From a phage: a DNA stretch of 64,000 nucleotides. The translations under genes were made by a program, and so were the position numbers. The notes beneath the pieces are model-generated. The model worked only from the letters and a program-made list of their open reading frames with translations. It did not search any database and was not told the origin of the DNA. The stretch lies in assembly GCA_036253035.1 (NCBI GenBank), contig GCA_036253035.1_4123.1; one strand, 5' to 3'. This document shows, one piece after another, positions 2,524 to 53,024 of the stretch (its first letter is position 1; each line of letters starts with the position of its first letter).

Positions 2524-3147
2524 CTATATATCCAACCCTTTTACAACATCTACGAAATGTTCAAACACTTCTTTTGAAAAATAACCTCCTTCACAAAAAA
2601 GCATACTAAACGGTGGCAGCATGTCCGATAACTCTTTAGCTAAATTGATTTCTGCTCTTAACTCTTGAACATCAATGATATCATGTACTAAAGATAATTG
2701 AAACATGAATGCATCTACATCTTCATTCATTTCTGAATTGTAATATAACTCTTCAGGGAATTTGTCGGTTTCGTAATAATAAAAAACTTTATTGTTGAAC
2801 ACACCACTAATAGGAACATCATTTTCATCTTTCTTTGAAATGTTTGTTTCCCATGACTCGATGTTATTAGGAACAAAAAAATCATAGGCTGATTTAGAAC
2901 CCTGTACTGAATCCAACTTTATTCCATAATATTCCGTATCCATGTATTTCTGCTGCAATGTAATACCACGTGTACTGACATTCACTTGGAATATATCATC
3001 TTTATCTGGAACACTAAATGGAATACATAACACTGAATTCTCAGGGTATTTGGCAATGAATGCATCCAGCACTTTATTAAGCACTGGAATGGCAATTTTA
3101 CTGTACTGCATCAAATCATACATTTTAATTCTGGTCATATCATTCAC
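2524..3147 (-). CDS. hypothetical protein, EEFFQ-motif family
   Basis: Motif MFQLSLVHDIIDV. Confidence 0.6.
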   Translation of the reverse strand: MNDMTRIKMYDLMQYSKIAIPVLNKVLDAFIAKYPENSVLCIPFSVPDKDDIFQVNVSTRGITLQQKYMDTEYYGIKLDSVQGSKSAYDFFVPNNIESWETNISKKDENDVPISGVFNNKVFYYYETDKFPEELYYNSEMNEDVDAFMFQLSLVHDIIDVQELRAEINLAKELSDMLPPFSMLFCEGGYFSKEVFEHFVDVVKGLDI

Positions 3148-3667
3148 CTGTGTATGTTTTCACCCTTAGCGATTCAAAATCCCATACATCACTGATTGTA
3201 CCATTGTGCCTGTAATCATAATATTCTACTAATACATTATACAATAACTTCAACGATACAAATTCATGATTCCACGGAGCTTTATTCTCATGAACACATT
3301 TGGTGATATAAGGTATAATATATAAACTAAACAACACTAATGGTGAATGTATACATTGCATTTGAAAATATTCTTCTTCTTGCATACAATGTTCAGGAAT
3401 AATTAGATCATAATGTGTCTCAAATAAATGTAAACCTATTGTGGTTTTTTTCGTATCACATGCGTACCATATTGTACTATCCGAAATAAATGGAATGATA
3501 CCATTATTGTTTGCAATGTACATCATATGGTAAGAGCGATTTGTCTTGTTAAATATCTCGATACTTTCGATATTACTACAAATCATGTATTCAAGACAAT
3601 CAATGATCTTATCTTTAAATGCACCAATTTCATTGAATGTCATTGATTTCTGCACGTCACTGCTCAT
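3140..3667 (-). CDS. hypothetical protein, EEFFQ-motif family
   Basis: Motif EEEYFQMQCIHSPL. Confidence 0.6.
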   Translation of the reverse strand: MSSDVQKSMTFNEIGAFKDKIIDCLEYMICSNIESIEIFNKTNRSYHMMYIANNNGIIPFISDSTIWYACDTKKTTIGLHLFETHYDLIIPEHCMQEEEYFQMQCIHSPLVLFSLYIIPYITKCVHENKAPWNHEFVSLKLLYNVLVEYYDYRHNGTISDVWDFESLRVKTYTGE

Positions 3668-4206
3668 ATGTTCTCCTTAAAAAAATTCAAATACTCTTCA
3701 TTGAAAGCATATGTATCATCTTTTTTGTTATGCACCACATAATCATAAAGAGCTATGAATGCAGGGATTATGATCTTACATGATTTATTATTGTATTTGT
3801 ACTGCTCCAAATCAACGGTATTCAATTTAGCAATAAGCATAGCAACAAAGATATCTTCATGGCGGTGTACTGTACTGTACTGAAAATATTCATCCTCTCC
3901 AATATCAGGATGATATAACGGTATATCCAAATTATTACGAATTGACATTTTATATTTTTGTAATGCAGCTAAATGCATGAACCACAATCTATCTTCATTG
4001 AAATATGGAAAAATAATTTGGTCTGTGCTAACAAAAATTTCCTCATTTTTATCGTATTCCACAAGAGGTGCATACATTTTATTTTTTGCAGATCTAATAA
4101 TTAAATTAAAAATATAATGAATCTTATGAACTGCACTTGATGCATCTTCGTATGTACTTGGGATTATGAAACTCACTATATGTTCTCCTTTAAAATGATT
4201 ACACAT
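3664..4206 (-). CDS. hypothetical protein, EEFFQ-motif family
   Basis: Motif EDEYFQYSTVHRHE; start moved to internal ATG (MCNHF) to avoid 80-nt overlap; alternative GTG start with AAAGGAG RBS 30 nt further downstream. Confidence 0.5.
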   Translation of the reverse strand: MCNHFKGEHIVSFIIPSTYEDASSAVHKIHYIFNLIIRSAKNKMYAPLVEYDKNEEIFVSTDQIIFPYFNEDRLWFMHLAALQKYKMSIRNNLDIPLYHPDIGEDEYFQYSTVHRHEDIFVAMLIAKLNTVDLEQYKYNNKSCKIIIPAFIALYDYVVHNKKDDTYAFNEEYLNFFKENI

Positions 4207-7197: not shown

Positions 7198-7435
7198 ATT
7201 TGTTTATCTCATTATGTACCTTAAGCATCAAAATTTGCATATGAATTTTTTGTTCAAGGTGCTTGATAAATTTCTGTGCCATTTCTTCTTGTTCCGATGT
7301 ACCAAGATAAAATAACAGATTAAATTCTGATAATCGCAAAGAAAAATCTTCATCACCACCCTTTAAACAAAAATCCCTGTACTTTGTAGCGTACAAATAT
7401 TGGTTTACTTTTTTATAATACCCTGTGTTTTGCAT
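7169..7435 (-). CDS. small protein, LGTNYQE-family outlier
   Basis: Motif FYLGTSEQEEMAQKFIKHL matches the 9.8-15.4 kb array family. Confidence 0.5.
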   Translation of the reverse strand: MQNTGYYKKVNQYLYATKYRDFCLKGGDEDFSLRLSEFNLLFYLGTSEQEEMAQKFIKHLEQKIHMQILMLKVHNEINKYEPNNSTGS

Positions 7436-7620
7436 ACGATCTCCGTTCGCAATGAACTTATATAATAATGAATGTATTGTTCCTGTGAACGTGTTCCAAG
7501 AAAAATAAACATATCAAACTCTGTTCTTTTTAAATTCAATGCATCTTTTGTTAAACTAGTACTGAATTCCCTGTACTTTTGGGTCTTCCATTCTTGATTA
7601 ATTGTCTTGTACATTGACAT
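7405..7620 (-). CDS. small protein, LGTNYQE-family outlier
   Basis: Motif IFLGTRSQEQYIHYYISSL. Confidence 0.5.
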   Translation of the reverse strand: MSMYKTINQEWKTQKYREFSTSLTKDALNLKRTEFDMFIFLGTRSQEQYIHYYISSLRTEIVCKTQGIIKK

Positions 7621-7918
7621 ATATGGTTCTTCCTTGTGTGCCTTGTATTAGCCTATCAAACACATCGAGCATCACTTTTTGAATATTAATTAGTACTGGC
7701 ATCGTGCAAATATCAATGTCATATACTAAGCTGTACTGGAATAATTCATCTTCCTGCATTTGTACTAAATTAGGTAAAGGATAATTGTCTGCCTCTTCAT
7801 CCTGGTACTTGAAATGCATAACACCATCCTTTTTGTACAATAGAATGTCAAGATCACCTAACTCATCAGCATAACCAAATATACATACATTAGATGTTTT
7901 TGCTATATTAAATTTCAT
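7598..7918 (-). CDS. hypothetical protein, EEFFQ-motif family
   Basis: Motif QEDELFQYSLVYDIDI. Confidence 0.55.
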   Translation of the reverse strand: MKFNIAKTSNVCIFGYADELGDLDILLYKKDGVMHFKYQDEEADNYPLPNLVQMQEDELFQYSLVYDIDICTMPVLINIQKVMLDVFDRLIQGTQGRTIYVNVQDN

Positions 7919-8724
7919 GATTTATATTGTTCCTTAAAAACACCACAATGATAATTTTTATTGTATTGTGTAATACTATAATCACACGGCATTGTCCCGC
8001 ACGAAGCTCTGTGTTTTAAACGTTCCAATACCTTATCGTAATCTTTACTGAAAATGCCATTTTCATTAGGCGTAGCAATCATTAATGCTTGCTCATATAA
8101 ATCTTTTGTTCTTGTTGAACCATGCGAATGTTTGTTAAAATAAAATACATATTCAACTTCCCAATTACTTCTTAAATAGGATATTCCGTAATTGGTAATC
8201 ATATAATAATGTAAATCCTTGTAATAATTGAATGTCTTATCTGTATTAATCAAAATATATGAAGAACTATCATTGTCCTTAATAACAAATAAACGACCAA
8301 TCTTATTTTCTTTATCTTTAACTAATTGTCTAATTTCATCACCTTCTTCAAATTTACGATGCACTTCAATTACAGATTTAGCAATCCCAGTCTGTACTAA
8401 AGATTCATATGCTGCGTACATAAAATCACTTACATGACCTAAACCAACATCTTCTTTTCTTGGTGTCTCTGTTGTATTGACAAACATATTCAATAACTTT
8501 TCAATTGAAAAATCAGTACTGCAATCTTTATTAATTTTAATTTTTTCTCGAATCTCTTCCTTTAATGCATTAATATATTGCTCTTGTGCTGCTTCCTGAT
8601 AATTTGTACCAAGATATAAACTCAAGGCAACTGAACCTTTGTAAGATGCTGATTTCTTTAAATCACCAGAACTAAATTTTTTCATAATCAAATTGGTTGC
8701 TTCAGATTCTGTTAAAAATTTCAT
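7915..8724 (-). CDS. hypothetical protein with N-terminal LGTNYQE-family module fused to larger C-terminal domain
   Basis: N-terminal 60 aa contains LYLGTNYQEAAQEQYINALKEEI; 269 aa total. Confidence 0.6.
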   Translation of the reverse strand: MKFLTESEATNLIMKKFSSGDLKKSASYKGSVALSLYLGTNYQEAAQEQYINALKEEIREKIKINKDCSTDFSIEKLLNMFVNTTETPRKEDVGLGHVSDFMYAAYESLVQTGIAKSVIEVHRKFEEGDEIRQLVKDKENKIGRLFVIKDNDSSSYILINTDKTFNYYKDLHYYMITNYGISYLRSNWEVEYVFYFNKHSHGSTRTKDLYEQALMIATPNENGIFSKDYDKVLERLKHRASCGTMPCDYSITQYNKNYHCGVFKEQYKS

Positions 8725-39959: not shown

Positions 39960-39995
39960 TGTATTAAATATAGTATAATGAATAAGGAGGGATTT
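39960..39995 (+). promoter_or_regulatory. plus-array promoter-like box (ATAGTATAATGAATAA) plus AGGAGG SD
   Basis: TATAAT at 39974-39979, no convincing -35; same module as between all downstream array genes. Confidence 0.5.
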
Positions 39996-41198
39996 ATGTT
40001 ACCTTTTGGAAGAATGATTAAGTACGCAAATATTGCACCAGGTCCAGAACCTGTAGAGTTCTCAGATGTTTTACAACAACATTATACAAACTGTATGTAT
40101 CTACATAACCCAACTAATACTTTATATGGTTATGGTAGTAATAACATGTATCAATTTGGTCTTGGGAATTCAGCAGCAGTTTCGTCATTTACAGTACTTG
40201 CAAGGAACTGTGCAGCCTTTTGGCTTGGTGTTCAAGGTTCATTGATGATTGATTTGGATAATAAAATATACTACACTGGGTCGGTTGGTGCATTTTCTGA
40301 TTATGGAGATGCAACACCTGTTAATGGTTATTTGACAACATGGACTGATGTTACTGTTGCATTTAATAAAATAGGTGTTATGGCTAATATGATCAAGAGT
40401 GTATATATAGGTGAAAGTACTAGAATATTATTAACCGATGGTAGAGTAATTGCGTGTGGAAGAAATACTAATGGTGAATGTGGCTCTGGTAATAAAAATT
40501 CCATCCCTACACTCACAGTTATGACTAATATGGGTGAAGTTACACATATGGCATGTTCATTACAAGGAACGCACTATATCAAATCAAATAAAGATGCATG
40601 GTTTTGTGGTAAGGATAACTTTGGTGAAAGTGGATGTGGTGGTAGTTCTGTTGTATATTTGAACAAATTCGTGATTAGTAATGTAGAACATATTAGTACT
40701 ACATACGATGTTACTTGGTGGTTTACTACTGGTGGGTCTGTATATTATAGCGGGGTTAACAGTACTGGACAAGCTGGTAATGGTACGACTACATCGGTAA
40801 ATCAGCTAACACCAATTAGGAACACATCGGTCACGGTTGATGTAAGTAAGTACAGTACTTTTATTTGTCCAAGTAATATGGGAAATGCATCAATTGGTGC
40901 ACCTATGGCACAATACGCACCATATGTTAGAAGTAGTGGTGCTAACTCATATGGTCAAGAAGGTAATGGAACTAATACATTAGTTAGAACTTGGAATATT
41001 TTTAATCTTAGTGCAATAAGTGGTGGTTATGACAATGTTCTTATGGCATCTAAAGATTGGAGCAGAACCATAATAATTACTAAAGATTATAAATTATATG
41101 CATGTGGTGGCTGGAATGGAAATGGTGGTAGATTGCCAGATGGCACTTATAGTATTACTACACTAACATTAATGCCAACGCAGTTATGGCAACAATAG
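39996..41198 (+). CDS. RCC1-like beta-propeller repeat protein with conserved N-terminal leader
   Basis: Starts MLPFGRMIKYANIAPGP; repeated G-x-N-x-x-G-Q/E-x-G-x-G motifs; AGGAGG RBS. Confidence 0.8.
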   Translation: MLPFGRMIKYANIAPGPEPVEFSDVLQQHYTNCMYLHNPTNTLYGYGSNNMYQFGLGNSAAVSSFTVLARNCAAFWLGVQGSLMIDLDNKIYYTGSVGAFSDYGDATPVNGYLTTWTDVTVAFNKIGVMANMIKSVYIGESTRILLTDGRVIACGRNTNGECGSGNKNSIPTLTVMTNMGEVTHMACSLQGTHYIKSNKDAWFCGKDNFGESGCGGSSVVYLNKFVISNVEHISTTYDVTWWFTTGGSVYYSGVNSTGQAGNGTTTSVNQLTPIRNTSVTVDVSKYSTFICPSNMGNASIGAPMAQYAPYVRSSGANSYGQEGNGTNTLVRTWNIFNLSAISGGYDNVLMASKDWSRTIIITKDYKLYACGGWNGNGGRLPDGTYSITTLTLMPTQLWQQ

Positions 41199-41206
41199 GA
41201 GGGAAT

Positions 41207-42316
41207 ATGTTACCTTTTGGAAGAATGATTAGGTATGGAAATATTGTCCCTGGTCCTAAAAAAATAATTAAAGTTGGTGCTTCTACCCAAGGCCAATTCT
41301 TATTGACTGATTCACATGATTTATATTACATAGGTAGAAATCAAGGTGGTGAATCTGGAAATGGTAATACCAACACGGTGTCTTCGTGGACATTAGTAAG
41401 TGCAGATGTTTCTAATTTTTTCGTGGGTGATCGTACACTTGTTATTATTAAAAATGATAATACGATATGGACATCAGGTCAAACGTACTGGTTCTCATCT
41501 TCTACAACTACTTCTTACAGTACTGTATTAGTTGAAAGAACTAATTGGTTTACCAATGCTATACCAGTAAGTGAAATTGCTAATATTGTATGTACAAATG
41601 GTTTAATATTTGTACTTAGCACTAATTCAGTACTCTATGGTGCAGGAGATAATGGATATCGTGGTTCTTTGGGTATTGGTTCCTCATCAATTTACACATT
41701 AACTCAATGTGCTACGAACGTTCGTAAAGTAATGACCAATGCGAATGATAGTATGTATCTTACATTAGATAATAAGCTATATAGTTCTGGATGGAATAGT
41801 AGTGGGCAGCATGGTACGGGGAACCAAACACAAATTAACACTTGGGGATTGCGTAGTTCTGGTGTAATCGATGCAGCCATTGGTGGTAATGCATTAAATT
41901 ACTATAATGGTACATCATATTTCGTATGTGGTCAAACTCCAAACTTTCTTAGTTCAGGCACGACTACATTCCGTGCCGTTCCTGTAAGTACTTTGCCTAA
42001 TAGTTCTCCGTTGTTTATGACGAATTCACCTGCCTTAAATACTGCTACACAAATGGTAATTACTAGTACATATCAGAAGGGTGTTGGGGCGAACCGTGGT
42101 TTGGGATTAAACAATTCTCAAACTGGTGCTATATATAGTGCTACCAATTTACAATTACCCGTTGAAGTTAGTGAGATTAGGGATGTTCTTTTTAGTGATG
42201 GTTTGACATCGATATTAACCAAAAATGGAGATGTGTATAGTACTGGATCGTATTACGCCATTCCAGGTGCAATCGAGGATGTTGCAGTCTTTACTAAAAT
42301 TGATTTACCAAAATAA
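41207..42316 (+). CDS. beta-propeller-like repeat protein with conserved N-terminal leader
   Basis: Starts MLPFGRMIRYGNIVPGP; Gly/Ser/Thr/Asn-rich repeats; coupled to upstream gene. Confidence 0.8.
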   Translation: MLPFGRMIRYGNIVPGPKKIIKVGASTQGQFLLTDSHDLYYIGRNQGGESGNGNTNTVSSWTLVSADVSNFFVGDRTLVIIKNDNTIWTSGQTYWFSSSTTTSYSTVLVERTNWFTNAIPVSEIANIVCTNGLIFVLSTNSVLYGAGDNGYRGSLGIGSSSIYTLTQCATNVRKVMTNANDSMYLTLDNKLYSSGWNSSGQHGTGNQTQINTWGLRSSGVIDAAIGGNALNYYNGTSYFVCGQTPNFLSSGTTTFRAVPVSTLPNSSPLFMTNSPALNTATQMVITSTYQKGVGANRGLGLNNSQTGAIYSATNLQLPVEVSEIRDVLFSDGLTSILTKNGDVYSTGSYYAIPGAIEDVAVFTKIDLPK

Positions 42317-42387
42317 CATAATGCCAGTACAGAGTACTGGCTTTCTTATTTGTATTAAATATAGTATAATGAATAAAGGAGGGAAAT
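42317..42387 (+). promoter_or_regulatory. intergenic module: terminator hairpin, T-run, TATAAT box, AGGAGG
   Basis: Hairpin GCCAGTACAGAGTACTGGC 42323-42341 + T-run; TATAAT 42365-42370. Confidence 0.6.
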
Positions 42388-43527
42388 ATGTTACCTTTTG
42401 CAAGAATGGTTAAGTACGGGAATATCGCACCTGAACTGATTCTACCTAAAAACAGGTTACAATGTTCTGCTGATGCCAAATTTTATTTACACACAAATGG
42501 CAATCTATATTGGTTTGGTTCTTCAGCATATGGACAAAGTGGTAATGGTTCATTGGACTCTTCAACTGAATGGACTCTTGTCAACTCAAATGTTACACGA
42601 TATTGGGGTGGGGTACAAGGAACAATTGCTATAAAGAAAGATGGTACTATTTGGTACACTGGTAGACGTACTGTTATTCCAATACTATCTTCAAACACTA
42701 ACGGCGTTTGGGTTGATATAACACAGAACTTTACTGATTTCGGTGTCAGTGCAGATGATATTGATAGTGTTGTGATATCTTCGTGTATGCGTGTATTTTT
42801 AAAAAATGGAAAGTGGTTCTACTGTGGTGCTGGTACTGGTGGTGTTTTTGGGAATGGATCAACTTCAAGCGTTTCACGATTCACCTATAGTACAATAGAA
42901 AATGTTATCAGTGCTGGTTGTGCAATATATAGTACTGGATTAGTACTAAATGATGGTTCATATTGGTATGCAGGTAGAACGTTTGTATCAGGAACGACGA
43001 CACAAAACTTGCTCACATTTACACAAGATACTTCGATTAGTAATGCAATTAAAGCAGTCAATACAAATGAAACTTCTTATATATTTCTTAATGATGGTAA
43101 TGTTAAAGTTGCATCTATTAACGACTATGGACAAGCAGGTACAGGAAATAGGTCAGTAGCCCCAATGAGTACATTAATTCCAAATTTATCATTCCAAGGA
43201 GAAGTGGAGTTGGTGGGTGAGCTTGGGACAAACCTTACCGGACCATCCTGTATAATTAATAATAATAATAAGTTATTTTCATGTGGCCTTAATTCAAATG
43301 GTCAATGTGGTATTGGTACAACTGATATGTATATAACATCATTCGCTGAAATGGATCTTACTGCATTAGAAGGTAGTAATCTTAGTAGTTTTTGTAAGAG
43401 CTATTCTTATACGATGTTAGTTGACGAATATAATAATTTATACACATGTGGTGTACCCAATCTTACTGGAATGTCTTCAACTACTGTACCAACAAGGGTT
43501 CCTGATTCACTTCTACCGTGGAAATAA
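42388..43527 (+). CDS. RCC1-like beta-propeller repeat protein with conserved N-terminal leader
   Basis: Starts MLPFARMVKYGNIAP; YGQSGNGS, YGQAGTGN, NGQCGIGT repeats. Confidence 0.8.
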   Translation: MLPFARMVKYGNIAPELILPKNRLQCSADAKFYLHTNGNLYWFGSSAYGQSGNGSLDSSTEWTLVNSNVTRYWGGVQGTIAIKKDGTIWYTGRRTVIPILSSNTNGVWVDITQNFTDFGVSADDIDSVVISSCMRVFLKNGKWFYCGAGTGGVFGNGSTSSVSRFTYSTIENVISAGCAIYSTGLVLNDGSYWYAGRTFVSGTTTQNLLTFTQDTSISNAIKAVNTNETSYIFLNDGNVKVASINDYGQAGTGNRSVAPMSTLIPNLSFQGEVELVGELGTNLTGPSCIINNNNKLFSCGLNSNGQCGIGTTDMYITSFAEMDLTALEGSNLSSFCKSYSYTMLVDEYNNLYTCGVPNLTGMSSTTVPTRVPDSLLPWK

Positions 43528-43598
43528 TATAATGCCAGTACACTGTACTGGCTTTCTTATTTGTATTAAATATAGTATAATGAATAAAGGAGGGAAAT
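43528..43598 (+). promoter_or_regulatory. intergenic terminator/promoter/SD module
   Basis: Hairpin 43534-43552 + T-run; TATAAT 43576-43581; near-identical to 42317 copy. Confidence 0.6.
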
Positions 43599-44747
43599 AT
43601 GTTACCTTTTGCAAGAATGATGAATTATGGGAATATTGCCCCTGGTAAGGATAGGCGTTTTAAAATATATTCAAGTGATTCTATGTATCTCCATGATACT
43701 TATACTAATAAGTTGTATGCATCTTCTGCGACGAATTGGGGTACTGGTACAGGTGTAGCATCGAGTAAATTTATTCTTTGTGCAGAGAATGTTAAACGAG
43801 TTCTATTGGAAGATAACAGTAGTAGTTGTCAAATGTATGAAGAGAAAGGTACTGGAAAAGTTTTTATCACTGGTAACACGAAGGCATTCACTGGTGTAAC
43901 TGATACAAAAACTTTGTGGACGGACTGTACTACGTGGATAACATCAGGTGGTATTAATGTTTCTGATATAAAATACATGAGTAGTTTTAATGATATGAAG
44001 GTGAATTTGATAACAAACGATGGTACGTTGTATTGTTGTGGAGTTAACAATAACTCGAACCTATCATCATTTGGTGATGGTACAAACATTAATTCTTTTA
44101 ACACATTCAAAAGGGTAGATACTATAACTTCGGTTAAAAAGGCAGTTGGTAACATATACCTAAAAGAAGATAATACTTTATGGGGTTGTGGTTTTAACTA
44201 TTACTATCAGTTAGGTACAGGTAATCAAACTTCTATTACTGGGGTGACGATGATTGCTTCAGATGTTATAGATTTTGATGTAAGTTATCAGAGTACATTT
44301 TTTATTAAATCGGATAATAATTTGTACGCTTGTGGTAAACAGTTCGGTGCACAATACGGGAACGAATTTGGCACAGGTGGTACTTCTTCATCTACCGATA
44401 TACAATACAAAACTCCGACATTATTGAGTTCAGGAGTTTATACTCTATATACGTGTGTTAGTAACATGGCATCACATATAGCTAAAGGTGATGAAGTTCT
44501 ATACGCATCTGGGTCGAATGGATTTGGTCAATTAGGTGTTGGTAATAATATTAATCAGTACTCATATACTCCTTCGTATACTTCGTTTAATAGTTCGTGT
44601 AATTTGGTACGCACTCCATCTGGTTCACTTATACTTACGGACACTGAGCAATTATATTATTGTGGGTATGCTATGGTAGTAATGGGGGGAATTGCTGGAC
44701 AAAACATTCTTAGTTATACAGAAGTTGATATGTCATTTATACAATGA
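43599..44747 (+). CDS. RCC1-like beta-propeller repeat protein with conserved N-terminal leader
   Basis: Starts MLPFARMMNYGNIAP; close paralog of 46888..48036. Confidence 0.8.
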   Translation: MLPFARMMNYGNIAPGKDRRFKIYSSDSMYLHDTYTNKLYASSATNWGTGTGVASSKFILCAENVKRVLLEDNSSSCQMYEEKGTGKVFITGNTKAFTGVTDTKTLWTDCTTWITSGGINVSDIKYMSSFNDMKVNLITNDGTLYCCGVNNNSNLSSFGDGTNINSFNTFKRVDTITSVKKAVGNIYLKEDNTLWGCGFNYYYQLGTGNQTSITGVTMIASDVIDFDVSYQSTFFIKSDNNLYACGKQFGAQYGNEFGTGGTSSSTDIQYKTPTLLSSGVYTLYTCVSNMASHIAKGDEVLYASGSNGFGQLGVGNNINQYSYTPSYTSFNSSCNLVRTPSGSLILTDTEQLYYCGYAMVVMGGIAGQNILSYTEVDMSFIQ

Positions 44748-44818
44748 TTTAATGCCAGTACTCTGTACTGGCTTTCTTATTTGTATTAAATATAGTATAA
44801 TGAATAAAGGAGGAATTT
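44748..44818 (+). promoter_or_regulatory. intergenic terminator/promoter/SD module
   Basis: Same ~70-bp module. Confidence 0.6.
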
Positions 44819-46006
44819 ATGTTACCTTTTGCAAGAATGATGAATTATGGGAATATTGCCCCAGTACCACTTCAAATTAAGAAAATAATCCCAACTGATT
44901 TAGATGTTGTGGTTCTGTATACGGATGGTCAACTATATGCACGTGGGAATAATAGTTTTGGGAAATTCGGTAGAGGAAACAACACTGCATTAAAATCATG
45001 GACATTAATTAGAGAAAACGTTAACGATTGCTGGCTTACACAAGGAACTTTATTAGTAAAAGACAATGACTCAAATTATTATTACTGTGGATATGGTAGT
45101 CATATTGGTTTATCAACTAGTACTACTACGTTTTTAAGTTATAACCAATATATTCAAAATTTGTACACACAAAGTTCAAGTACTTCAATTAAACAGATGT
45201 ATGGAGGTACTACGTGGTTTACTGTGTTAATGGATAATAATACAATATGGAGTACAGGGTGGAACAGTGCTAGACAATTCGCAGATGGTACAGGAACTAC
45301 TTATGAAATAACCGATGGTTCATTTGTAAAAGCGGTCACACCTAATGTTGATATTGCACAAATACAGTCAACAAATAACTGTGTATTGTTGTTTGATAAA
45401 CAAAATAATTTATATATTGGTGGTGTTACATCCGGTATAAGTTCCGCGACTACATGGACTTCATATAATGAATATACTTTATATCAACCAAATACAACAT
45501 ACACAAAAACGTTACAATACACAGGATGCTCAACTGGTGCAGTAAGTGCTTTAGTTGAAAATCCAAATACAGGAGCACGTCAGTTCCTTGTCGGTGGGTT
45601 AGCTAATAATGGGGCATGGGGAAATAACACTACATCTAGCTCTGTTAATGGAGTTTTAGGAAATAACAGTACTACGTTACCACCCGGTACTTTGTATTCA
45701 ATTCATACTGGATACCCACCACAATCTAGTATACTAATTACGAGTACTGGTGTATATGCAACTGGTTTAAATGCCAGTAGTTATGCTGGTTCATTGGGTA
45801 TTGGTACTAGTGCAACTGTTGGTAAGTTTACTGCATGTCCAATGCCTACACAAATAACATATTCTATGTATGATAAAATAAAAATATATAGAGGTTCATA
45901 TCGTACATTTCTAACTGATATGAAAAATATATATTCAACCGGAACTTATGATGATGGTGGTCCTAGTACAACTAGATATGTACTAGATACACCCCGACAA
46001 TTATAA
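44819..46006 (+). CDS. beta-propeller-like repeat protein with conserved N-terminal leader
   Basis: Starts MLPFARMMNYGNIAP. Confidence 0.8.
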   Translation: MLPFARMMNYGNIAPVPLQIKKIIPTDLDVVVLYTDGQLYARGNNSFGKFGRGNNTALKSWTLIRENVNDCWLTQGTLLVKDNDSNYYYCGYGSHIGLSTSTTTFLSYNQYIQNLYTQSSSTSIKQMYGGTTWFTVLMDNNTIWSTGWNSARQFADGTGTTYEITDGSFVKAVTPNVDIAQIQSTNNCVLLFDKQNNLYIGGVTSGISSATTWTSYNEYTLYQPNTTYTKTLQYTGCSTGAVSALVENPNTGARQFLVGGLANNGAWGNNTTSSSVNGVLGNNSTTLPPGTLYSIHTGYPPQSSILITSTGVYATGLNASSYAGSLGIGTSATVGKFTACPMPTQITYSMYDKIKIYRGSYRTFLTDMKNIYSTGTYDDGGPSTTRYVLDTPRQL

Positions 46007-46078
46007 TATAATAGCCAGTACTCAGTACTGGCTTTTCTTTTTGTATTAAATATATTATAATGAATAAAGGAGGGAATT
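46007..46078 (+). promoter_or_regulatory. intergenic terminator/promoter/SD module
   Basis: Same module (variant). Confidence 0.55.
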
Positions 46079-46816
46079 ATGTTACCTTTTGGAAGAATGA
46101 TTAAGTACGGGAATGAAATTGAATATAAGCCACATGGTGAACAATTAATCACGACAATAGGAACAACACAATTTACAGTTCCTGCTGGCGTTACCGAAAT
46201 ATCAGTATGTGTTATTTCGCCGGGTGGTCAACGTGGTGCTGGCGGCGGCTTATCGTGGCGTAATAATATTCCGGTTACTAGTGGTGAGTACTTAAGTGTT
46301 TCTCTTACACATCCCAACACTACTACAGCAGTTGAAAACGGTTTATATCGTGGAACTGAAAAACTATGTGTTAGCTTCACTGGTGAATATAGGGTTGGTG
46401 GACTAGGTGGGAAAGCTGCTAACGCTATTAATGATGGTGGTGGTAATGGGGGCAACGCTGGTGTAAGTGGTGGTGCAGTCATTGGTGGTGGTGCTGGTGG
46501 CTACACTGGTAAAGGTGGTAACGGAGATGCAATCACTGGTGAAAATGGTGCTGGCGGCGGCGGTGGTGGTGGTGCATTCTATAATACCTCGTTCATTGGT
46601 ACGGGTGGTGGTACTGGTATCATTGTTCAAGGTGCTAATGGTATTGGCGGTAGATACGATGGTTCATATAATGGTGGTGCTGGTAGTGGTGGTGCTGGTA
46701 AGATGTATGGTGGTGGTGGTAGTATATGGGATAATTTTTCTTATACGGCTGCTGGTGGTGGTGCTGTGCGAATAATATGGGGACGTGGGAGATATTATCC
46801 TAACAATTCAGTCTAA
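46079..46816 (+). CDS. glycine-rich repeat protein with conserved N-terminal leader
   Basis: Starts MLPFGRMIKYGN; C-terminal two-thirds dominated by GGxGG/GGAGG repeats. Confidence 0.75.
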   Translation: MLPFGRMIKYGNEIEYKPHGEQLITTIGTTQFTVPAGVTEISVCVISPGGQRGAGGGLSWRNNIPVTSGEYLSVSLTHPNTTTAVENGLYRGTEKLCVSFTGEYRVGGLGGKAANAINDGGGNGGNAGVSGGAVIGGGAGGYTGKGGNGDAITGENGAGGGGGGGAFYNTSFIGTGGGTGIIVQGANGIGGRYDGSYNGGAGSGGAGKMYGGGGSIWDNFSYTAAGGGAVRIIWGRGRYYPNNSV

Positions 46817-46887
46817 AATATAGGCCAGTACTTGATACTAGCATTCTTATTTGTATTAAATATAGTATAATGAATAAGGAGGGAAAT
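46817..46887 (+). promoter_or_regulatory. intergenic terminator/promoter/SD module
   Basis: Same module. Confidence 0.55.
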
Positions 46888-48036
46888 ATGTTACCTTTTG
46901 TTAGAATGATTAAGTACGGGAATATTGCACCTAACCCGCCTGATCCTAGTACACGTTTTAAAATATATTCCGGCGGTAGTGCTATGTATTTTCATGATAC
47001 ATACACGAAAAATTTGTATGCATCAGCGGCAGTCAGTCAGGGTACTGGAACTGGTGTTTCGTCGAGTAAATTTATTCTTAGTGCGACTAATGTTAAAAGA
47101 GTCCTTTTGGAAAATAACAGTAGTGGTTGTCAATTATATGAAGAAGACGGTACTGGAAAAGTGTTTATAACTGGAAGTCCGAGTGCGTTTTCTGGTTCAG
47201 GTGCATATTATAACACGTGGACAGATTGTACTTCATGGATAACATCCAGTGGTATTAATGTTTCTGATATAAAATACATGAGTAGTTACAGTGATCTTAA
47301 AGTGAATTTGATAACAACTGATGGTACTTTATATTGCTGCGGAACAAACAGCACATCAACCAGATCATCTTTTGGTAATGGCACAAATACAAATTCATTT
47401 AACGCCTTTGTTAAGATTGAAGCCATATCATCGGTAAAAAAAGCTGTTGGTAACATATACCTAAAAGAAGATAATACATTATGGGGTTGTGGTATTAACA
47501 CTTACTATCAGTTAGGGACAGGCAATCAAACTGCTAGTACTGGAGTTGTTAGAATACAGACTAATGTTATAGATGTCGATGTAAGTTATCAGAGTACATT
47601 TTTTATTAAAGATGATAATAAATTGTACGCTTGTGGTACACAATATGGACTATCATATGGTAATGAATTCGGCACAGGCACAACACTTAAGCAATACACA
47701 ACACCAACTTTATTGAATTCGGATGTACAGAATATATACTGTTGTGTTGGTAATATGGCTTCACATATTCTCAGATTTGGGACTACAATATTTGCAACTG
47801 GGGTTAACACTGGTGGGCAATTGGGTGTTGGTAATCTTACAAATCAGTTCTATTATACCAAGTCTTATGAAAATTTTAATAGTTCTTACAGTTTAGTACT
47901 GAATAACATCGGTAGTTTGATTCTCACAGATGAAGGTAAGTTATTTTATACTGGTTTTTCCAATCTAGTAATGGGTGGAAGTTCTGGGCAGTACACTACA
48001 AGATATACCGAAGTTGATATGTCATTTATACAATGA
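46888..48036 (+). CDS. RCC1-like beta-propeller repeat protein with conserved N-terminal leader
   Basis: Starts MLPFVRMIKYGNIAP; paralog of 43599..44747 (both end ...YTEVDMSFIQ). Confidence 0.8.
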   Translation: MLPFVRMIKYGNIAPNPPDPSTRFKIYSGGSAMYFHDTYTKNLYASAAVSQGTGTGVSSSKFILSATNVKRVLLENNSSGCQLYEEDGTGKVFITGSPSAFSGSGAYYNTWTDCTSWITSSGINVSDIKYMSSYSDLKVNLITTDGTLYCCGTNSTSTRSSFGNGTNTNSFNAFVKIEAISSVKKAVGNIYLKEDNTLWGCGINTYYQLGTGNQTASTGVVRIQTNVIDVDVSYQSTFFIKDDNKLYACGTQYGLSYGNEFGTGTTLKQYTTPTLLNSDVQNIYCCVGNMASHILRFGTTIFATGVNTGGQLGVGNLTNQFYYTKSYENFNSSYSLVLNNIGSLILTDEGKLFYTGFSNLVMGGSSGQYTTRYTEVDMSFIQ

Positions 48037-48107
48037 ATTAAAGCCAGTACTTGATACTGGCATTTCTTTTTGTATTAAATATAGTATAATGAATAAAGGA
48101 GGGAATT
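48037..48107 (+). promoter_or_regulatory. intergenic terminator/promoter/SD module
   Basis: Same module. Confidence 0.55.
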
Positions 48108-49271
48108 ATGTTACCTTTTGCAAGAATGGTTAAGTACGGGAATATAGCACCAGCACCACCGAAATTTAAAAAAATACTCGCCAATAACTACAACGTTGCA
48201 GTTTTAACAAGCAGTGGGGATTTATATGTACGTGGTCAGAATTCAAATGGTCTTTTGGGTTTAGGTCACAAAGAAACCGTTACTACATGGACGTTAAGTA
48301 CTTCTGGTGTTGAAGATTTTTGGTTAAGTACCACTTCTTTGGTTATTAAGAAATTCAACAATGAAATATGGTACAGTGGTTCGTCAACTACTGTTGGTAT
48401 GACAGGGGCAGCCGTATCAGTGTGGACTTCTGCTATGCCAACATTCAATACATTAACATTACCAATATTAGATATGGCAGTTAGTAATCAGACTACAAGT
48501 GTATTACTTTCAGATCGAACAATATGGAGTACTGGGGCAGGGGCAGAAGGTCAGTTAGGTAATGGGACAACAACTAACAACGTTAATACTAAATTCGTCC
48601 AGAGCACAGTCTCTACTGAAGAAGACCAATTACCATTTAAATTGTTTGCAAGTAATCTAATGCATGGTTATGTTACTGCTAACGGTTGGTTATACTATAC
48701 AGGCCGTGTCAATGCAATTAGCACTAGTGGTACTTCTCTATATACAGTATACACTAGTGCTCCTACGAGTCTAAGGAGTGTAATTAATATCGAGTACTAT
48801 GTAAATAATAACAATTCAATGGCGATGGCTATTGGTACTGATCCAAATGGAAAAACCATAATTGCCAATGGTGGGGCGAAAAGATTTGGTGCACAGGCAG
48901 ATGGAGTGAATAGTACTGATATAAGAGCATTTGCTGTTCAAACTGCTTCCCTAATGCCACCAGGTGATGTACTCAGTATGGCCCATAATACTTCATATTA
49001 TAACCAAGTTATTGCTACAACAGATGGTATATATTGTTGTGGCTACAACCAATCAACACAAGCTGGTATGTTAGGTGTTGGTACATCTACTAACGCATTA
49101 GTATATACCAAAGCAATCGTACCTGATGGTTTTGATTATAGTAAATCACAAATGTCAGGTGGGTATAACCGTACTTATATAACTGATGGTAATTTTGTAT
49201 ATAGTACTGGGGCTGATGTCACATATGGTGGTATTAATAGCTTAGTATTTGTAATAGATTCACCATTTTAA
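48108..49271 (+). CDS. RCC1-like beta-propeller repeat protein with conserved N-terminal leader
   Basis: Starts MLPFARMVKYGNIAP; ends ...SLVFVIDSPF like the frameshifted copy. Confidence 0.8.
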   Translation: MLPFARMVKYGNIAPAPPKFKKILANNYNVAVLTSSGDLYVRGQNSNGLLGLGHKETVTTWTLSTSGVEDFWLSTTSLVIKKFNNEIWYSGSSTTVGMTGAAVSVWTSAMPTFNTLTLPILDMAVSNQTTSVLLSDRTIWSTGAGAEGQLGNGTTTNNVNTKFVQSTVSTEEDQLPFKLFASNLMHGYVTANGWLYYTGRVNAISTSGTSLYTVYTSAPTSLRSVINIEYYVNNNNSMAMAIGTDPNGKTIIANGGAKRFGAQADGVNSTDIRAFAVQTASLMPPGDVLSMAHNTSYYNQVIATTDGIYCCGYNQSTQAGMLGVGTSTNALVYTKAIVPDGFDYSKSQMSGGYNRTYITDGNFVYSTGADVTYGGINSLVFVIDSPF

Positions 49272-49342
49272 AAAGAATGCCAGTACTTGATACTGGCTTT
49301 CTTATTTGTATTAAATATAGTATAATGAATAAGGAGGGAATT
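49272..49342 (+). promoter_or_regulatory. intergenic terminator/promoter/SD module
   Basis: Same module; track ORF start lies inside it. Confidence 0.55.
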
Positions 49343-50494
49343 ATGTTACCTTTTGGAAGAATGGTTAAGTACGGGAATATTGCACCAGTTCCGGTAGTTC
49401 CTACAATAAAAGATTTTAAGATTGGCTTTTCACATGAAGTGTTATTGGACAGTGAAGGTGATGTGTGGGGTATTGGATATAATACCGCTGGTCAGTTGGG
49501 ATTTCTGGACGCTAACACAAATTCAATAGGAATGTGGTCTAAGATACATGAGAATGTTAGATTAATTGGCGTTACTACCAATTATACTGTAGTTGTTACA
49601 AATGATAATAGAATACTTTACGCCGGAAATAACTTAATTTCTAGTACTACAACGCTTGGGTGGAACGATATAACGTCTAGTATGGGAGCGGTTGTAGTGG
49701 ATAGCATCGATGCATTATATTGCACAGATGGCATGATGCATATTAAAACTGCTGATGGTTCTTTATACGCATATGGACGTAATATGAACGCAAACGCTGG
49801 AGTTACTGGTGTTTCTGGAGTTATTAGTGTTGCAACTAAAGTTAGTGGTTTACCATCGGCTGTGAAAGATATACGATATACGTTTAGTTATGGTACAATA
49901 CTATGTCAATTAGATACCACCTCGGTATATGGATGGGGAAGAAATGTCAATGGTGAATTAGGTCAGGGGAACGCAGCCGCAGTTCCTACCCCATCCCAAA
50001 GGGCGGGTGCTTCTATTGCTATAGGTACTTCGTATAATGCTACTGCAATTGTTTCCGGTACTGCATCGTTGGTTACATGTGGTGGACAAAATGATGGTCA
50101 GTTAGGTAATGGTATTACTACTGCTGGTAATGTATACACATATGGTGCTAGAGCATACCCAAGCGATCTTAATAATATAAGAAGTCCAGTGGATTGCAGT
50201 ACAACTTATACATCTGCATTTATGAGTCCAGATGGCATATATTACACGGGTTCGAACCGAAGTGTGTTTGGTGGTCCGAGCGGGGCTGCCACTGTTGCAT
50301 TATATACCAAATGTAGTGATTTACCAATATTATATTCTAATATAACACAGTGGTGTAGTGGTACTATTGGTGGTGCGATATGTAGCAGTACTGAATTATA
50401 TCAGTGTGGGACCGGTAGATACATTGCCGGAGATGGGCAGAACGCAACTAGGTATGGGTTTAGAAAGACACCATTACCTTGGGATGTTTATTGA
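49343..50494 (+). CDS. RCC1-like beta-propeller repeat protein with conserved N-terminal leader
   Basis: Start moved to MLPFGRMVKYGNIAP after AGGAGG. Confidence 0.8.
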   Translation: MLPFGRMVKYGNIAPVPVVPTIKDFKIGFSHEVLLDSEGDVWGIGYNTAGQLGFLDANTNSIGMWSKIHENVRLIGVTTNYTVVVTNDNRILYAGNNLISSTTTLGWNDITSSMGAVVVDSIDALYCTDGMMHIKTADGSLYAYGRNMNANAGVTGVSGVISVATKVSGLPSAVKDIRYTFSYGTILCQLDTTSVYGWGRNVNGELGQGNAAAVPTPSQRAGASIAIGTSYNATAIVSGTASLVTCGGQNDGQLGNGITTAGNVYTYGARAYPSDLNNIRSPVDCSTTYTSAFMSPDGIYYTGSNRSVFGGPSGAATVALYTKCSDLPILYSNITQWCSGTIGGAICSSTELYQCGTGRYIAGDGQNATRYGFRKTPLPWDVY

Positions 50495-50566
50495 CATAAA
50501 GCCAGTACTCAAGTACTGGCATTTCTTTTTGTATTAAATATAGTATAATGAATAAAGGAGGAATTT
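50495..50566 (+). promoter_or_regulatory. intergenic terminator/promoter/SD module
   Basis: Same module. Confidence 0.55.
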
Positions 50567-51742
50567 ATGTTACCTTTTGCAAGAATGGTTAAGTACGGGA
50601 ATGTTAAACCAGCACCTTCGGGTGTACTGAAGATTGCTACATCTACAACACATGTGGGTATGTTGTTCGATAGTGGCAATTTATATCTACGTGGTAATGG
50701 TGCACAATATAGGCTAGGAAATGATAGTACTGCGTATTTACAAAATGGATGGATACAGTGTCCATATAAAGTTGCTAATGTTTGGTGTTTATCCGCAGGG
50801 ACCATTATACTTACGACTGAAGGAGAATTTTACTTAGCAGGACAAATGGGATACCTTGGTGTGGTCAAATCGCCTGTTCCAGGATGGACAAATATTACAT
50901 CAATATTGTCTACAATACCAAGCCTTACTACAGTTCAAGATATAGCTTCTACTGAGACTGTCGCTTCAAATGGTACTTTATTAATTATGTTAAGCAATGG
51001 TGATTTATACGGGATAGGTAGTAATACTGGAGGTGAACTGGGTGTTTCTGGTGCAAAAGCGACACCGATTAAGATTGATACTGGTGTTACTATGATTGCT
51101 GGTACACACTTTGGTGGTGCTTTACATTATGTTAAAAATGGTCAATATTACAGATGTGGTAATAACGCAAGTTATAACCTAGGTACAAGTGCATCTAAAC
51201 TATCCACATTTACAGTAAGTACTGATATATCTGGAACAGTTATTGGTATTTCATGTACTAATTTGACGACTTCAGTACTTACATCGAATAAGGGTAATAT
51301 TAGAGTATATACTGCTGGGATAAACACTGATTATTGTTTAGGAATTGGGTATGGAGACACGAAGGTTACAATGAGTCCATTTAGTGCTACTCCCGAAATT
51401 AGTGGTATTATACCAGATGCTGGGTCGATGAACAATCACAGTTTGAATTATTTTATAATGGCAATGACACAGAATGGTAAACTTTATACATGTGGTAGTG
51501 GTGTTCCTCTTGGTTGGCCTGTTACTACTGCATCAGAAAGATCTTATTACCACCAGGTACAATATGAGGATATGGATGTTGCACCAGATGTTAATGCATT
51601 TTCAGTTCAAGGTGGTTCTGGTGTGTTATACGCGTTAGTGGGGACTAATGAGGTGTACTGGTGTGGTAACGGGTCTATGTTTCAGGAACAGAGTCCAGGT
51701 ACACAACAAGTTAAAATGAAGAAAATGATTTTACCAGAATAA
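50567..51742 (+). CDS. beta-propeller-like repeat protein with conserved N-terminal leader
   Basis: Starts MLPFARMVKYGNVKP. Confidence 0.8.
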   Translation: MLPFARMVKYGNVKPAPSGVLKIATSTTHVGMLFDSGNLYLRGNGAQYRLGNDSTAYLQNGWIQCPYKVANVWCLSAGTIILTTEGEFYLAGQMGYLGVVKSPVPGWTNITSILSTIPSLTTVQDIASTETVASNGTLLIMLSNGDLYGIGSNTGGELGVSGAKATPIKIDTGVTMIAGTHFGGALHYVKNGQYYRCGNNASYNLGTSASKLSTFTVSTDISGTVIGISCTNLTTSVLTSNKGNIRVYTAGINTDYCLGIGYGDTKVTMSPFSATPEISGIIPDAGSMNNHSLNYFIMAMTQNGKLYTCGSGVPLGWPVTTASERSYYHQVQYEDMDVAPDVNAFSVQGGSGVLYALVGTNEVYWCGNGSMFQEQSPGTQQVKMKKMILPE

Positions 51743-51826
51743 AATGTGAAATACAATGCATGTACTCTGTACTGGCTTTTCTTATTTATATTAAATATAG
51801 TATAATGAATAAAGGGGAGTAAAATT
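51743..51826 (+). promoter_or_regulatory. intergenic terminator/promoter/SD module (variant)
   Basis: Hairpin variant + TATAAT + AAGGGGAG. Confidence 0.5.
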
Positions 51827-53014
51827 ATGTTACCTTTCGGAAGAATGTTTGATTATGGGAATATTAAGCCTGTACCTGAACCTGAAGAGTTTGATGAAGT
51901 TTTACAGCAACAATATTACAATACACTATATTTGCATAAACCCACTAATACATTATATGGGTACGGATTAAACAGTAACAAACAGCTTAGTTTATTAATT
52001 GTACCTACTGAATTTATGGTACTGAGTACTGATTGTAAAAAATATTGGACTGGTGTGTTTGGTACATTGATGGTAAGTCTTTCGAACAAAATATACTACT
52101 GTGGTAGTAGAATTGCGTTCCCACAAGCGACTACCGCATCTAACACCGATGGGTGGAAATATGTAACTGAGTACTTTGACGCTTTAGGTGTAGTTGGTGA
52201 TGATATTAAGAGTGTATATATAGGTGCGAGTACTAGAGTATTATTAAATGATGGTCGAGTTATGTGTTGTGGTAACAATGCTTATGCTGAATGTGGTACG
52301 GGTGTTACTGGAGCAATTAATACTTTACAATTTGTACCACAATTTGGTACTGATGTAAAGAGTATGTATTGTTCGACATATGGTACGCATTATATTAACT
52401 CCAGAAACGAATCATATTTTGTTGGAGAAAATACAAATGGTACTAGTGGTACTGGAACTGCTAATGATTCTATTGTAGCTGCACATACATTAACTGCACG
52501 TAACGTAAAACACATTAGTACTAATTACAATACGACTTGGTGGTTTTTTGAAAATGGTGATATATATTGGTGTGGTCTGAATAATATGGGTCAGGCTGGT
52601 AATAATAGTGTTACTAGTGGGTATACGTTGTTAGCTGTTAAGAATACTGTACTTTCTGGTACAATTGATCTCCCGACATTGAAATCTCCTAGTAGTTTAT
52701 CAACGGGCTATGTGGGAGCACCAATTGCTTCATATTCATCACGAATTAGAAATGGTGGAATAAATGATCTTGGTCAACTAGGGTTGGGTACAATAACACC
52801 GTTCGAACGATCATGGATAGATATGAATATTAGTATTATTGGTACATATGATGATGTATTGACAATATCCAAAGATATTAGATCATCAATGATATTAACA
52901 AAAGATTATAAATTATATGCATGTGGTGGATATAATTCAAATGGTCAATCATTACCTGATGGATCATATGTTACCAGTACATTAAAATTAATGGCAAATA
53001 TGCCGTGGTATTAA
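51827..53014 (+). CDS. RCC1-like beta-propeller repeat protein with conserved N-terminal leader
   Basis: Starts MLPFGRMFDYGNIKP; paralog of first array gene 39996..41198. Confidence 0.8.
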   Translation: MLPFGRMFDYGNIKPVPEPEEFDEVLQQQYYNTLYLHKPTNTLYGYGLNSNKQLSLLIVPTEFMVLSTDCKKYWTGVFGTLMVSLSNKIYYCGSRIAFPQATTASNTDGWKYVTEYFDALGVVGDDIKSVYIGASTRVLLNDGRVMCCGNNAYAECGTGVTGAINTLQFVPQFGTDVKSMYCSTYGTHYINSRNESYFVGENTNGTSGTGTANDSIVAAHTLTARNVKHISTNYNTTWWFFENGDIYWCGLNNMGQAGNNSVTSGYTLLAVKNTVLSGTIDLPTLKSPSSLSTGYVGAPIASYSSRIRNGGINDLGQLGLGTITPFERSWIDMNISIIGTYDDVLTISKDIRSSMILTKDYKLYACGGYNSNGQSLPDGSYVTSTLKLMANMPWY

Positions 53015-53024
53015 GGAGAGAGAT

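Follow-up and report, generated by a model that had tools for sequence, protein, structure and literature searches.

A conserved glycine-rich gene in a leader-bearing array of an Asteriusvirus jumbo coliphage, with a predicted polyglycine-lattice fold and a probable place on the virion surface

The tail fibre protein gp24 of cyanophage Pam3 has an N-terminal helical docking domain and, after it, a TNF-like domain and one rich in glycine; the latter contains 39% Gly, with 12 motifs forming a four-layer lattice, and its hypervariable distal tip is proposed to bind the host receptor (PMC9608196). Domains of this kind from Pam3, Bxb1 gp33 and gp29, S16 gp38 and ALK have been classed together as polyproline/polyglycine-II bundles (PMC13243192). 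Particularly, gp33 of Bxb1 joins the virion indirectly via other wing proteins, and relatives that lack the wing genes are viable (PMC12646305). Here we analyze a glycine-rich gene located at positions 46079 to 46816 of a 64,000-nucleotide stretch of phage DNA (assembly GCA_036253035.1, contig GCA_036253035.1_4123.1), which we call the window. The phage is an Asteriusvirus, a jumbo coliphage of the 121Q/PBECO4 kind within the Rak2-like group, and the gene is part of a tandem array whose members begin with the same short leader. We consider it probable that its product is a small virion-associated surface protein in which a polyglycine-lattice domain is combined with the shared leader tag. The gene and its parts are as follows (nt, nucleotides; aa, amino acids; all coordinates are those of the window).

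46079..46816, plus strand: coding sequence (CDS) of the glycine-rich protein, ATG start, 245 aa plus stop (stop included); equivalent to 121Q gp243 and assigned to PHROG 4474 (E 2e-69).
46079..46114, plus strand: leader MLPFGRMIKYGN, residues 1-12, shared with the RCC1-like and Kelch paralogues and lying outside the conserved domain.
46136..46390, plus strand: predicted beta-strands of the TNF-like jelly-roll core, residues ~20-104, with the family motifs FTVPAGVT and GGGLSWRNNIPVT.
46391..46783, plus strand: glycine-rich domain, residues ~105-235, with the motifs INDGGGNGG, GGGAGGYTGKGGNG, GAGGGGGGGA, GTGGGTG and YGGGG.

The open reading frame (ORF) is a real gene. Its product is 98.8% identical to 121Q gp243, annotated as "hypothetical protein", and tblastn located the gene in 17 Asteriusvirus records at 93-99% protein identity; an 18th match, 84% identical, lies in the CMSTMSU record, which is flagged UNVERIFIED. 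The ORF is very likely translated, because the hairpin, promoter-like box and AAGGAGG cassette of its neighbours also precede it, because it is conserved in the 17 Asteriusvirus records and in about 5,700 cluster representatives that match its family profile, and because homologues have been seen in virions by mass spectrometry (MS; PMC5259590; PMC7760394). Glycine makes up 70 of its 245 residues (28.6%), far above chance, against 9.8-12.8% in 13 other tabulated array genes. From codon 13 onward nothing in it resembles the RCC1-like propellers around it, in which Pfam recognizes RCC1, and its preliminary description as a glycine-rich, non-propeller member of the array holds good. The GGxGG and GGAGG motifs given there are likewise present (GGLGG, GGNGG and GGAGG, besides a run of seven glycines), but the figure of about 60% Gly for the C-terminal 160 residues was too high: the actual count is 58 of 160, or 36%. 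Residues 105-235 reach 41% (54/131), and only single windows of 20 residues attain 55%.

To predict the fold we used AlphaFold2 (AF2) with a 54-sequence alignment of the family from which the CBB sequence had been left out. The model has a predicted local distance difference test (pLDDT) score of 94 and a predicted TM-score (pTM) of 0.90. According to DSSP, residues 20-100 hold beta-strands and residues 136-215 are well ordered while being neither helix nor sheet; the glycine-rich region as a whole, for which structure prediction had been proposed as a check, is modelled as ordered at pLDDT 90-99. In the model, a closing strand of the glycine-rich domain, AVRIIWG, returns to the beta-sandwich. 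For residues ~105-235, the prediction is a lattice of the polyglycine-II type whose loops vary. The predicted structure, a TNF-like sandwich with extended glycine-rich loops, can be superposed on solved members of the class; a Foldseek search of the PDB placed the Pam3 fibre first (probability 0.97) and the glycine-rich domain (GRD) of ALK third. Among the viral models of BFVD, 87 proteins matched at E<=1e-3, most of them "glycine-rich domain-containing protein" entries of tailed phages and cyanophages, and the matches include megavirus collagen-repeat proteins that carry the domain at their C-terminal tip. The match to Pam3- and ALK-type domains, like the fold itself, is an in silico prediction.

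The composition and conservation of the domain point in the same direction. The share of glycine is close to that of Pam3 gp24 (41% and 49/125, or 39%, respectively), and the glycine motifs are conserved while the loop tips vary. Across residues 105-235 of 54 homologues, glycine positions are 77% conserved and non-glycine positions 28%, and the insertions cluster after residues 50, 81, 105, 130, 152, 170, 195 and 203, all of which are loops. This combination of conserved glycines with insertions in loops reproduces the pattern of Pam3 gp24, namely conserved Gly motifs and variable tips (PMC9608196). The glycines are a conserved scaffold and not filler.

A sequence search returned 196 homologues, most of them stand-alone proteins of 240-280 aa on phage-like contigs, and many of the distant ones carry PF21722 (Gly_rich_2). 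The distant stand-alone homologues have a conserved N-terminus of their own, M-[LI]-E-[LM]-[LM]. PF21722 was matched by 12 of the 54 aligned family members (best E 3.5e-11), the query itself remaining unmatched. By sequence, its membership of PF21722 would be transitive, as expected of a divergent branch beyond the reach of the curated model. The motifs FxVPxGVT and GGGAGGY agree with those typical of PF21722. An exhaustive profile search extended the family to 5,688 cluster representatives, of which 1,190 reached E<=1e-30; the matches include many very long proteins, in which the domain either recurs 2-9 times or stands at the C-terminus, and they begin at query positions 8-20, that is, past the leader. 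A Plesiomonas-associated phage contig (JBOFWI010000265, locus L009) holds two adjacent paralogues, at 7176 and 8001 on the plus strand, just upstream of terminase, portal and capsid genes.

Two other identities were set aside. Homologues in the records of Serratia phage BF, the Erwinia pEa_SNUABM phages and CMSTMSU are labelled "PE-PGRS", yet there is no PE hit in Pfam, and the protein starts with the phage leader, behind which comes a beta-sandwich; the label reflects similarity of composition only. Nor did we retain a role of the collagen or antifreeze kind, since TNF-like and glycine-rich-domain proteins gave the best matches.

Virion presence has been established for homologues. CBB_144 (locus L002, 6001-6765), a protein of 254 aa that is 36% identical to the query in the family alignment, starts with MLPFSPLIVYGN, the same MLPF...YGN start as in the query, and was identified in CBB virions through 5 unique peptides covering 34% of the protein (PMC5259590). 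It is one of six structural proteins that are absent from GAP32, a set that the authors considered as candidates for the tail hairs (PMC5259590). In the Erwinia phages pEa_SNUABM_12, 47 and 50 (Eneladusvirus), a homologue annotated as "PE-PGRS family protein" was found by liquid chromatography-tandem MS of particles (PMC7760394). Moreover, the RCC1-like paralogues gp003, 005, 006, 007, 009 and 010 of phAPEC6 were found in virions (PMC7247149), and the RCC1 paralogues that flank the glycine-rich gene are among them. The genome papers of Sharanji and fEgEco12 do not discuss the glycine-rich gene.

The leader, described beforehand as shared with the surrounding genes, is indeed common property: the ORF starts with MLPFGRMIKYGN, and the same leader heads 14 other ORFs with starts from 39996 to 56138. 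These form a tandem array, 39996-56360, of 15 ORFs that each begin MLPF-x-R-M/I and comprise 12 RCC1-like propellers (one of them a 74-aa fragment), 2 Kelch propellers and the glycine-rich protein. The Kelch members (53025..53972 and 54048..54938, both on the plus strand) match Pfam Kelch families with E 5e-16 and 7e-14; as they too carry the MLPF leader, it heads three unrelated folds within the window. The boundary is sharp, DNA identity to the other cassette-bearing genes being 93% at +1..+36 (codons 1-12) and 27%, about chance level, at +37..+72. The copies of the leader make use of different synonymous codons. Among the RCC1 paralogues, pairwise identity is only 19-30% while the leader is invariant, and 9 of their 15 invariant columns fall within the first 15 residues. 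Confidence is lowest at the leader in both AF2 models (pLDDT ~54 here and <50 in an RCC1 paralogue).

The leader extends to other phages. In CBB (KU574722, 318000-356000, together with CBB_144), the form MLPFxR[LM]xxY[GA]N heads ten proteins, CBB_144, 536, 537 and 548-554, which have LamG_3, Kelch or unknown folds; eight of the ten are annotated as structural from virion MS. Since CBB has no RCC1 array and bears the leader nonetheless, the latter is a general tag of the Rak2-like phage group. A degenerate DNA pattern of the leader, searched in IMG/VR, occurred only on Rak2-like jumbo phage contigs of 348-378 kb, those of 121Q, CBB, GAP32, Serratia phage BF and two metagenomic contigs. The RCC1-like array of Serratia phage BF (KY630187) contains two Gly-rich paralogues, minus-strand genes starting at 6191 and 4180, with 265 and 280 aa and 25% and 32% Gly, whose GenBank name "PE-PGRS family protein" is a composition-driven misannotation. 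All members of the BF array carry the leader variant MLPFPIISNT, which indicates that the leader evolves in concert across unrelated folds within a genome. The glycine-rich protein of the window thus belongs to a set of proteins of Rak2-like jumbo phages that begin M-L-P-F-x-[R/I]-hydrophobic...(Y-G/A-N) at the start codon and have members in virions. Because the leader is highly conserved, lies outside the fold and is common to different binding domains of virion proteins, we infer that it is a docking peptide for a common virion partner. Our literature search found no paper containing the leader strings MLPFGRM or MLPFARM.

Taken as a model, residues ~13-245 would form a TNF-like beta-sandwich whose long glycine-rich loops pack into an ordered lattice of the polyglycine-II type, a kind of domain that also makes up the tip with which gp24, the tail fibre of Pam3, recognises its receptor, the "wing brush" gp33 of Bxb1 and the ligand-binding glycine-rich domain of ALK. 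By analogy with these proteins, the conserved glycines would provide the scaffold, and the poorly conserved, indel-rich loop tips may be the ligand-contacting surface, most probably for a component of the host cell surface. Residues 1-12 (MLPFGRMIKYGN) would be a tag that Rak2-like jumbo phages fuse to unrelated binding folds (RCC1, Kelch, LamG and glycine-rich). The tag most likely docks all the leader proteins onto one site of the virion, possibly the "hairy" appendages of phAPEC6, fEgEco12 and CBB. More tentatively, and with less confidence than in the surface location itself, the MLPF leader might be a universal plug by which the Rak2-like jumbo phages (Asteriusvirus, Mimasvirus, Eneladusvirus) mount swappable, unrelated binding domains (RCC1, Kelch, LamG lectin-like, polyglycine) on a single structure, the "hairs". 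If so, the array, in which the promoter-leader cassette is homogenised, would serve as a library of host-binding heads ready for recombination, and the glycine-rich protein would be the one member with a fold already tied to receptor recognition in other phages.

Several observations weigh against a surface protein of this type and should be taken into account. In CBB and PVP-SE1, the genes around the homologue serve nucleotide metabolism and replication and are not tail genes. GAP32 has leader-bearing proteins and has not been reported as hairy. The proteomic detections are of homologues and paralogues, with none, by proteomics or imaging, of the Asteriusvirus glycine-rich protein itself. The global TM-scores of the Foldseek matches to the PDB are low (0.2-0.3), no Pfam hit was obtained for the query at E<=1, PE included, and a PDB search with the family sequence profile matched no chain; the link to Pam3 and ALK is consequently one of predicted structure. 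The AF2 model shows no N-terminal helix, its sole helix of >=4 residues being at 111-114 and residues 1-19 consisting of the leader and short strands, and no gp25- or Tfa-like chaperone gene adjoins the gene, both flanks being RCC1-like. Lacking the helical docking domain and the adjacent chaperone, the protein is not a fibre of the Pam3 type. Receptor binding and docking by the leader are argued by analogy.

The alternative that fares best places the protein inside the head, with the leader as a capsid-targeting sequence that directs it into the prohead, as in the internal proteins of T4, so that it would be an "inner body" protein packaged or ejected with the DNA. We regard this as unlikely, though it has several points in its favour. 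phAPEC6 possesses an inner body, for which its authors suggested the RCC1-like proteins as candidates (PMC7247149), and a short N-terminal leader on unrelated cargo domains does resemble a targeting signal; the genes, moreover, lie outside the main structural module, and MS reveals association with the virion and not location. Nevertheless, the leader copies (the 15 of the window and those of CBB and BF) hold no conserved protease-type cleavage motif, since position 9 can be K, N, D, E, S, Q or A and the copies have no invariant Glu behind the leader, on which ground we set aside a T4-type capsid-targeting and cleavage signal. Among solved structures, those nearest to the protein are parts of external fibres or tail tips and the extracellular domain of a receptor; Kelch, RCC1 and LamG, the folds of its partners, are typical surface-binding modules, and related domains stand at the ends of giant-virus collagen-repeat proteins. 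A T4-like targeting signal is the main rival reading of the leader, weakened by the missing cleavage motif and by structural relatives that are all external.

Less probable still is a non-structural protein whose domain does its work inside the cell during infection, for instance on a host factor that it binds, the homologues having been detected in virions through carry-over. The metabolic and replicative neighbourhood of the CBB and PVP-SE1 homologues would suit such a role (gp19, the PVP-SE1 homologue, adjoins DNA replication genes), as would the restriction of direct virion detection to homologues of the Asteriusvirus protein. However, homologues appear in two independent virion proteomes, CBB_144 with 34% coverage and that of the Erwinia phages, the co-arrayed paralogues are phAPEC6 virion proteins, and the homologue of the Plesiomonas-associated contig is encoded immediately upstream of terminase, portal and capsid genes.

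The preliminary description also saw in the coding DNA a tract prone to slippage, from which it would follow that the C-terminal region is a flexible or disordered low-complexity spacer whose length varies through replication slippage, as in a variable or contingency locus. The features that bear on this are the following.

46553..46573, plus strand: run of seven glycines (G7), residues 159-165, (GGC)3(GGT)4; the sole site where an isolate differs by a glycine codon.
46467..46477 and 46566-46576, plus strand: copies 1 and 2 of the 11-nt direct repeat GTGGTGGTGCA, found by a repeat search.

The tract is GGT/GGC-rich as described, these codons encoding 60 of the 70 glycines, and the ORF has a GC content of 45% against 35% in the window; it is not, however, a long perfect repeat, and GGT is the normal glycine codon of the genome (71% of Gly codons in this gene and 59% in its neighbours). 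We give very little credence to the variable spacer. What speaks for it are the many direct repeats of 10-11 nt in the GGT/GGC-rich DNA, the G6 that phAPEC6 has in place of G7, one codon fewer, and one metagenomic contig of the Logan collection (SRR12907740_527, locus L023) that has lost exactly 99 nt between the two GTGGTGGTGCA copies. This contig (1180-1690, compared with 46020-46620 of the window) shows a second deletion, between GGGAAT repeats, that takes away the start codon and the leader, and its remnant ORF begins at an ATG inside the promoter cassette (MNKGGNK...). As the start codon and leader are gone as well, we read the variant as a probable case of gene decay and not of phase variation. 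On the other side stand the confidently modelled region, the glycine positions that are the most conserved columns in the 54 homologues, and a length that is nearly invariant: 245 aa, aligned residue by residue, in 121Q, Sharanji, Turkey3, fEgEco12 and the window (four of five isolates besides the window), and 735 nt spanned by 16 of the 18 tblastn matches. A simple-sequence contingency locus was rejected, the longest perfect trinucleotide run being (GGT)4, Tandem Repeats Finder giving only weak rows (scores 30-58), and length differing only in phAPEC6 and in the single metagenomic deletion; the CMSTMSU homologue, with its compensating frameshifts, was set aside for this comparison. Support for slippage is therefore weak and speaks for slight mutability at most. 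Repeat-mediated changes do occur, but selection holds the length, and this is not a variable-length locus.

Finally, a wrong reading frame has to be mentioned, as one further ORF is listed within the gene.

46467..46775, plus strand: Val-rich ORF of 102 aa, out of frame; no gene but a side effect of the GGT-rich coding frame.

That the true product is an overlapping Val-, Thr- or Pro-rich ORF, or nothing at all, is scarcely credible: phAPEC6 does annotate the Val-rich gp004 in place of the glycine-rich frame and the CMSTMSU record splits the gene, but the glycine-rich frame begins 5 nt after AAGGAGG behind the conserved cassette of the array, is conserved as protein to 36-60% identity across genera and in thousands of relatives, yields the high-confidence fold and has peptide evidence for its homologues, and CMSTMSU is flagged UNVERIFIED and contains compensating frameshifts. 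It is GGT-rich DNA that gives rise to the overlapping Val-, Thr- and Pro-rich ORFs, as artefacts of frame. In phAPEC6 (MK817115), the glycine-rich gene (7325-8056) is not annotated and gp004 (7716-8018) is the out-of-frame Val-rich ORF, VVQSLVVVLV...; the true product being missing from the annotation, the published virion MS was probably unable to reveal it, assuming that only annotated proteins were in the database to which the spectra were compared. In CMSTMSU (MH494197), at 3001-3732, the frameshifts inside the gene, probably a sequence error, produce two CDSs, and one note cites the PGRS of M. tuberculosis.

Both flanking genes of the glycine-rich ORF are RCC1-like propellers, and the intergenic elements on either side are these.

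46013..46033, plus strand: terminator-like hairpin AGCCAGTACTCAGTACTGGCT followed by a T-run, 9-pair stem, dG -13.3 kcal/mol, z -5.0; closes the upstream RCC1-like gene.
46040..46078, plus strand: promoter-like and ribosome-binding cassette TTTGTATTAAATATATTATAATGAATAAAGGAGGGAATT, read from the sequence; a near-identical cassette precedes 10 array genes.
46824..46842, plus strand: degenerate copy of the inter-gene hairpin, GCCAGTACTTGATACTAGC, 3' of the glycine-rich gene, dG -4.2 kcal/mol, z +0.2; the hairpin scan lists it on the minus strand only.

The first hairpin opens a repeated intergenic cassette, and the hairpin element GCCAGTACnnnGTACTGGC precedes most array genes. The cassette includes the conserved box TATTAAATATAnTATAAT, a TATAAT at 46056-46061 and the Shine-Dalgarno sequence AAGGAGG at 46067-46073, 5 nt 5' of the ATG. 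Since the conserved cassette was not among the canonical promoters called by a sigma-70 scan, we treat its promoter function as putative. The hairpin behind the gene is weak where copies elsewhere are strong, and transcription may read through into the RCC1 gene that follows. Three array genes (41207, 53025 and 54948) have no hairpin or promoter-like cassette; they abut or overlap the preceding gene and have the Shine-Dalgarno sequence only, which makes the array a mix of stand-alone units and short operons. The cassette part TATAATGAATAAGGAGG holds an ATG that is in frame in some copies and gives rise to a spurious MNKEG... extension in mechanical ORF calls. The ORF list accordingly gives starts at 39978, 46870 and 49277 where the real ones, at the ATG 5 nt past the Shine-Dalgarno sequence, are 39996, 46888 and 49343; for 49277, an in-frame ATG further upstream yields the longer spurious extension MPVLDTGFLICIKYSIMNKEGI. 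At 56138..56359 (plus strand), a leader-bearing RCC1 fragment of 74 aa is followed by a 298-aa ORF at 56394..57290 (plus strand), a pair that looks like a split or frameshifted RCC1 paralogue comparable to gp235/gp234 of 121Q.

Relative to the papers and records searched, both the annotation of the domain and the 12-residue leader that polyglycine, propeller and LamG virion proteins of three jumbo phage genera have in common are new, the leader system being the more novel lead. The analysis supplies a fold-level annotation for a protein which the jumbo phage records examined call "hypothetical" or, wrongly, "PE-PGRS", and which is absent from the phAPEC6 annotation. Because a member with an adhesin-type fold shares its leader with the RCC1 and Kelch proteins, several of which occur in virions, the "DNA condensation" label of the surrounding array is undercut, and attention shifts from chromatin-like roles to surface binding. 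Together, the leader peptide and a small set of proteins are concrete candidates for the hairy appendages of CBB and of phAPEC6-type phages, and a leader that is indeed a docking tag could serve to mount binding domains of foreign origin on the particles of jumbo phages.

Among known systems, Pam3 gp24 (PDB 7YPX/7YFW) is one of the closest. Both proteins combine a TNF-like sandwich with glycine-rich lattice loops, the lattice of the query being predicted, and both have GGGGxGG-type conserved motifs with variable distal tips in chains of similar size (280 and 245 aa). They differ in sequence (~17% identity) and in attachment, as an alpha-helical bundle at the N-terminus of the Pam3 protein trimerises and docks to the baseplate whereas the query has its 12-residue leader; Pam3 gp24 also needs the adjacent chaperone gp25, and the query is flanked by RCC1-like genes. 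S16 gp38, the adhesin of a T-even Salmonella phage (PDB 6F45), is a receptor-binding tip with polyglycine-II motifs between hypervariable segments (PMC9608196, PMC13243192) and shares the logic of a conserved Gly scaffold with variable loops. The Bxb1 "wing brush" gp33 and a subdomain of the tail spike gp29 (PDB 9D93) are likewise glycine-rich polyproline/polyglycine-II bundles in an exposed accessory tail structure (PMC13243192), and the indirect attachment of gp33 and the dispensable wing fit the accessory decoration role proposed for the glycine-rich protein; Bxb1, however, is a Mycobacterium siphovirus, its gp33 attaches via gp30 and gp31 and not through a shared leader, and there is no detectable sequence relationship. 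The GRD of ALK/LTK (PDB 7LIR, 7LRZ, 7LS0, 7NX3) is part of the large ectodomain of a metazoan receptor kinase that binds ALKAL/AUG, is 16-20% identical to the query and has no evolutionary or functional continuity with it beyond the fold. For the leader, a parallel is found in branched receptor-binding proteins (CBA120 TSP1-4 and RaK2 gp526-534; PMC10253068), where shared N-terminal parts plug different C-terminal domains into one virion structure, and RaK2 is of the same broad group as the phage of the window; those parts, in contrast, are folded modules of ~100 residues (D1/XD/anchor) on trimeric tailspikes, compared with a 12-residue peptide on small, probably globular proteins. By sequence, then, the protein would be placed as a divergent member of the PF21722 superfamily, and by its predicted fold it would work like the TNF-like and polyglycine tips of Pam3 gp24 and the accessory gp33 of Bxb1.

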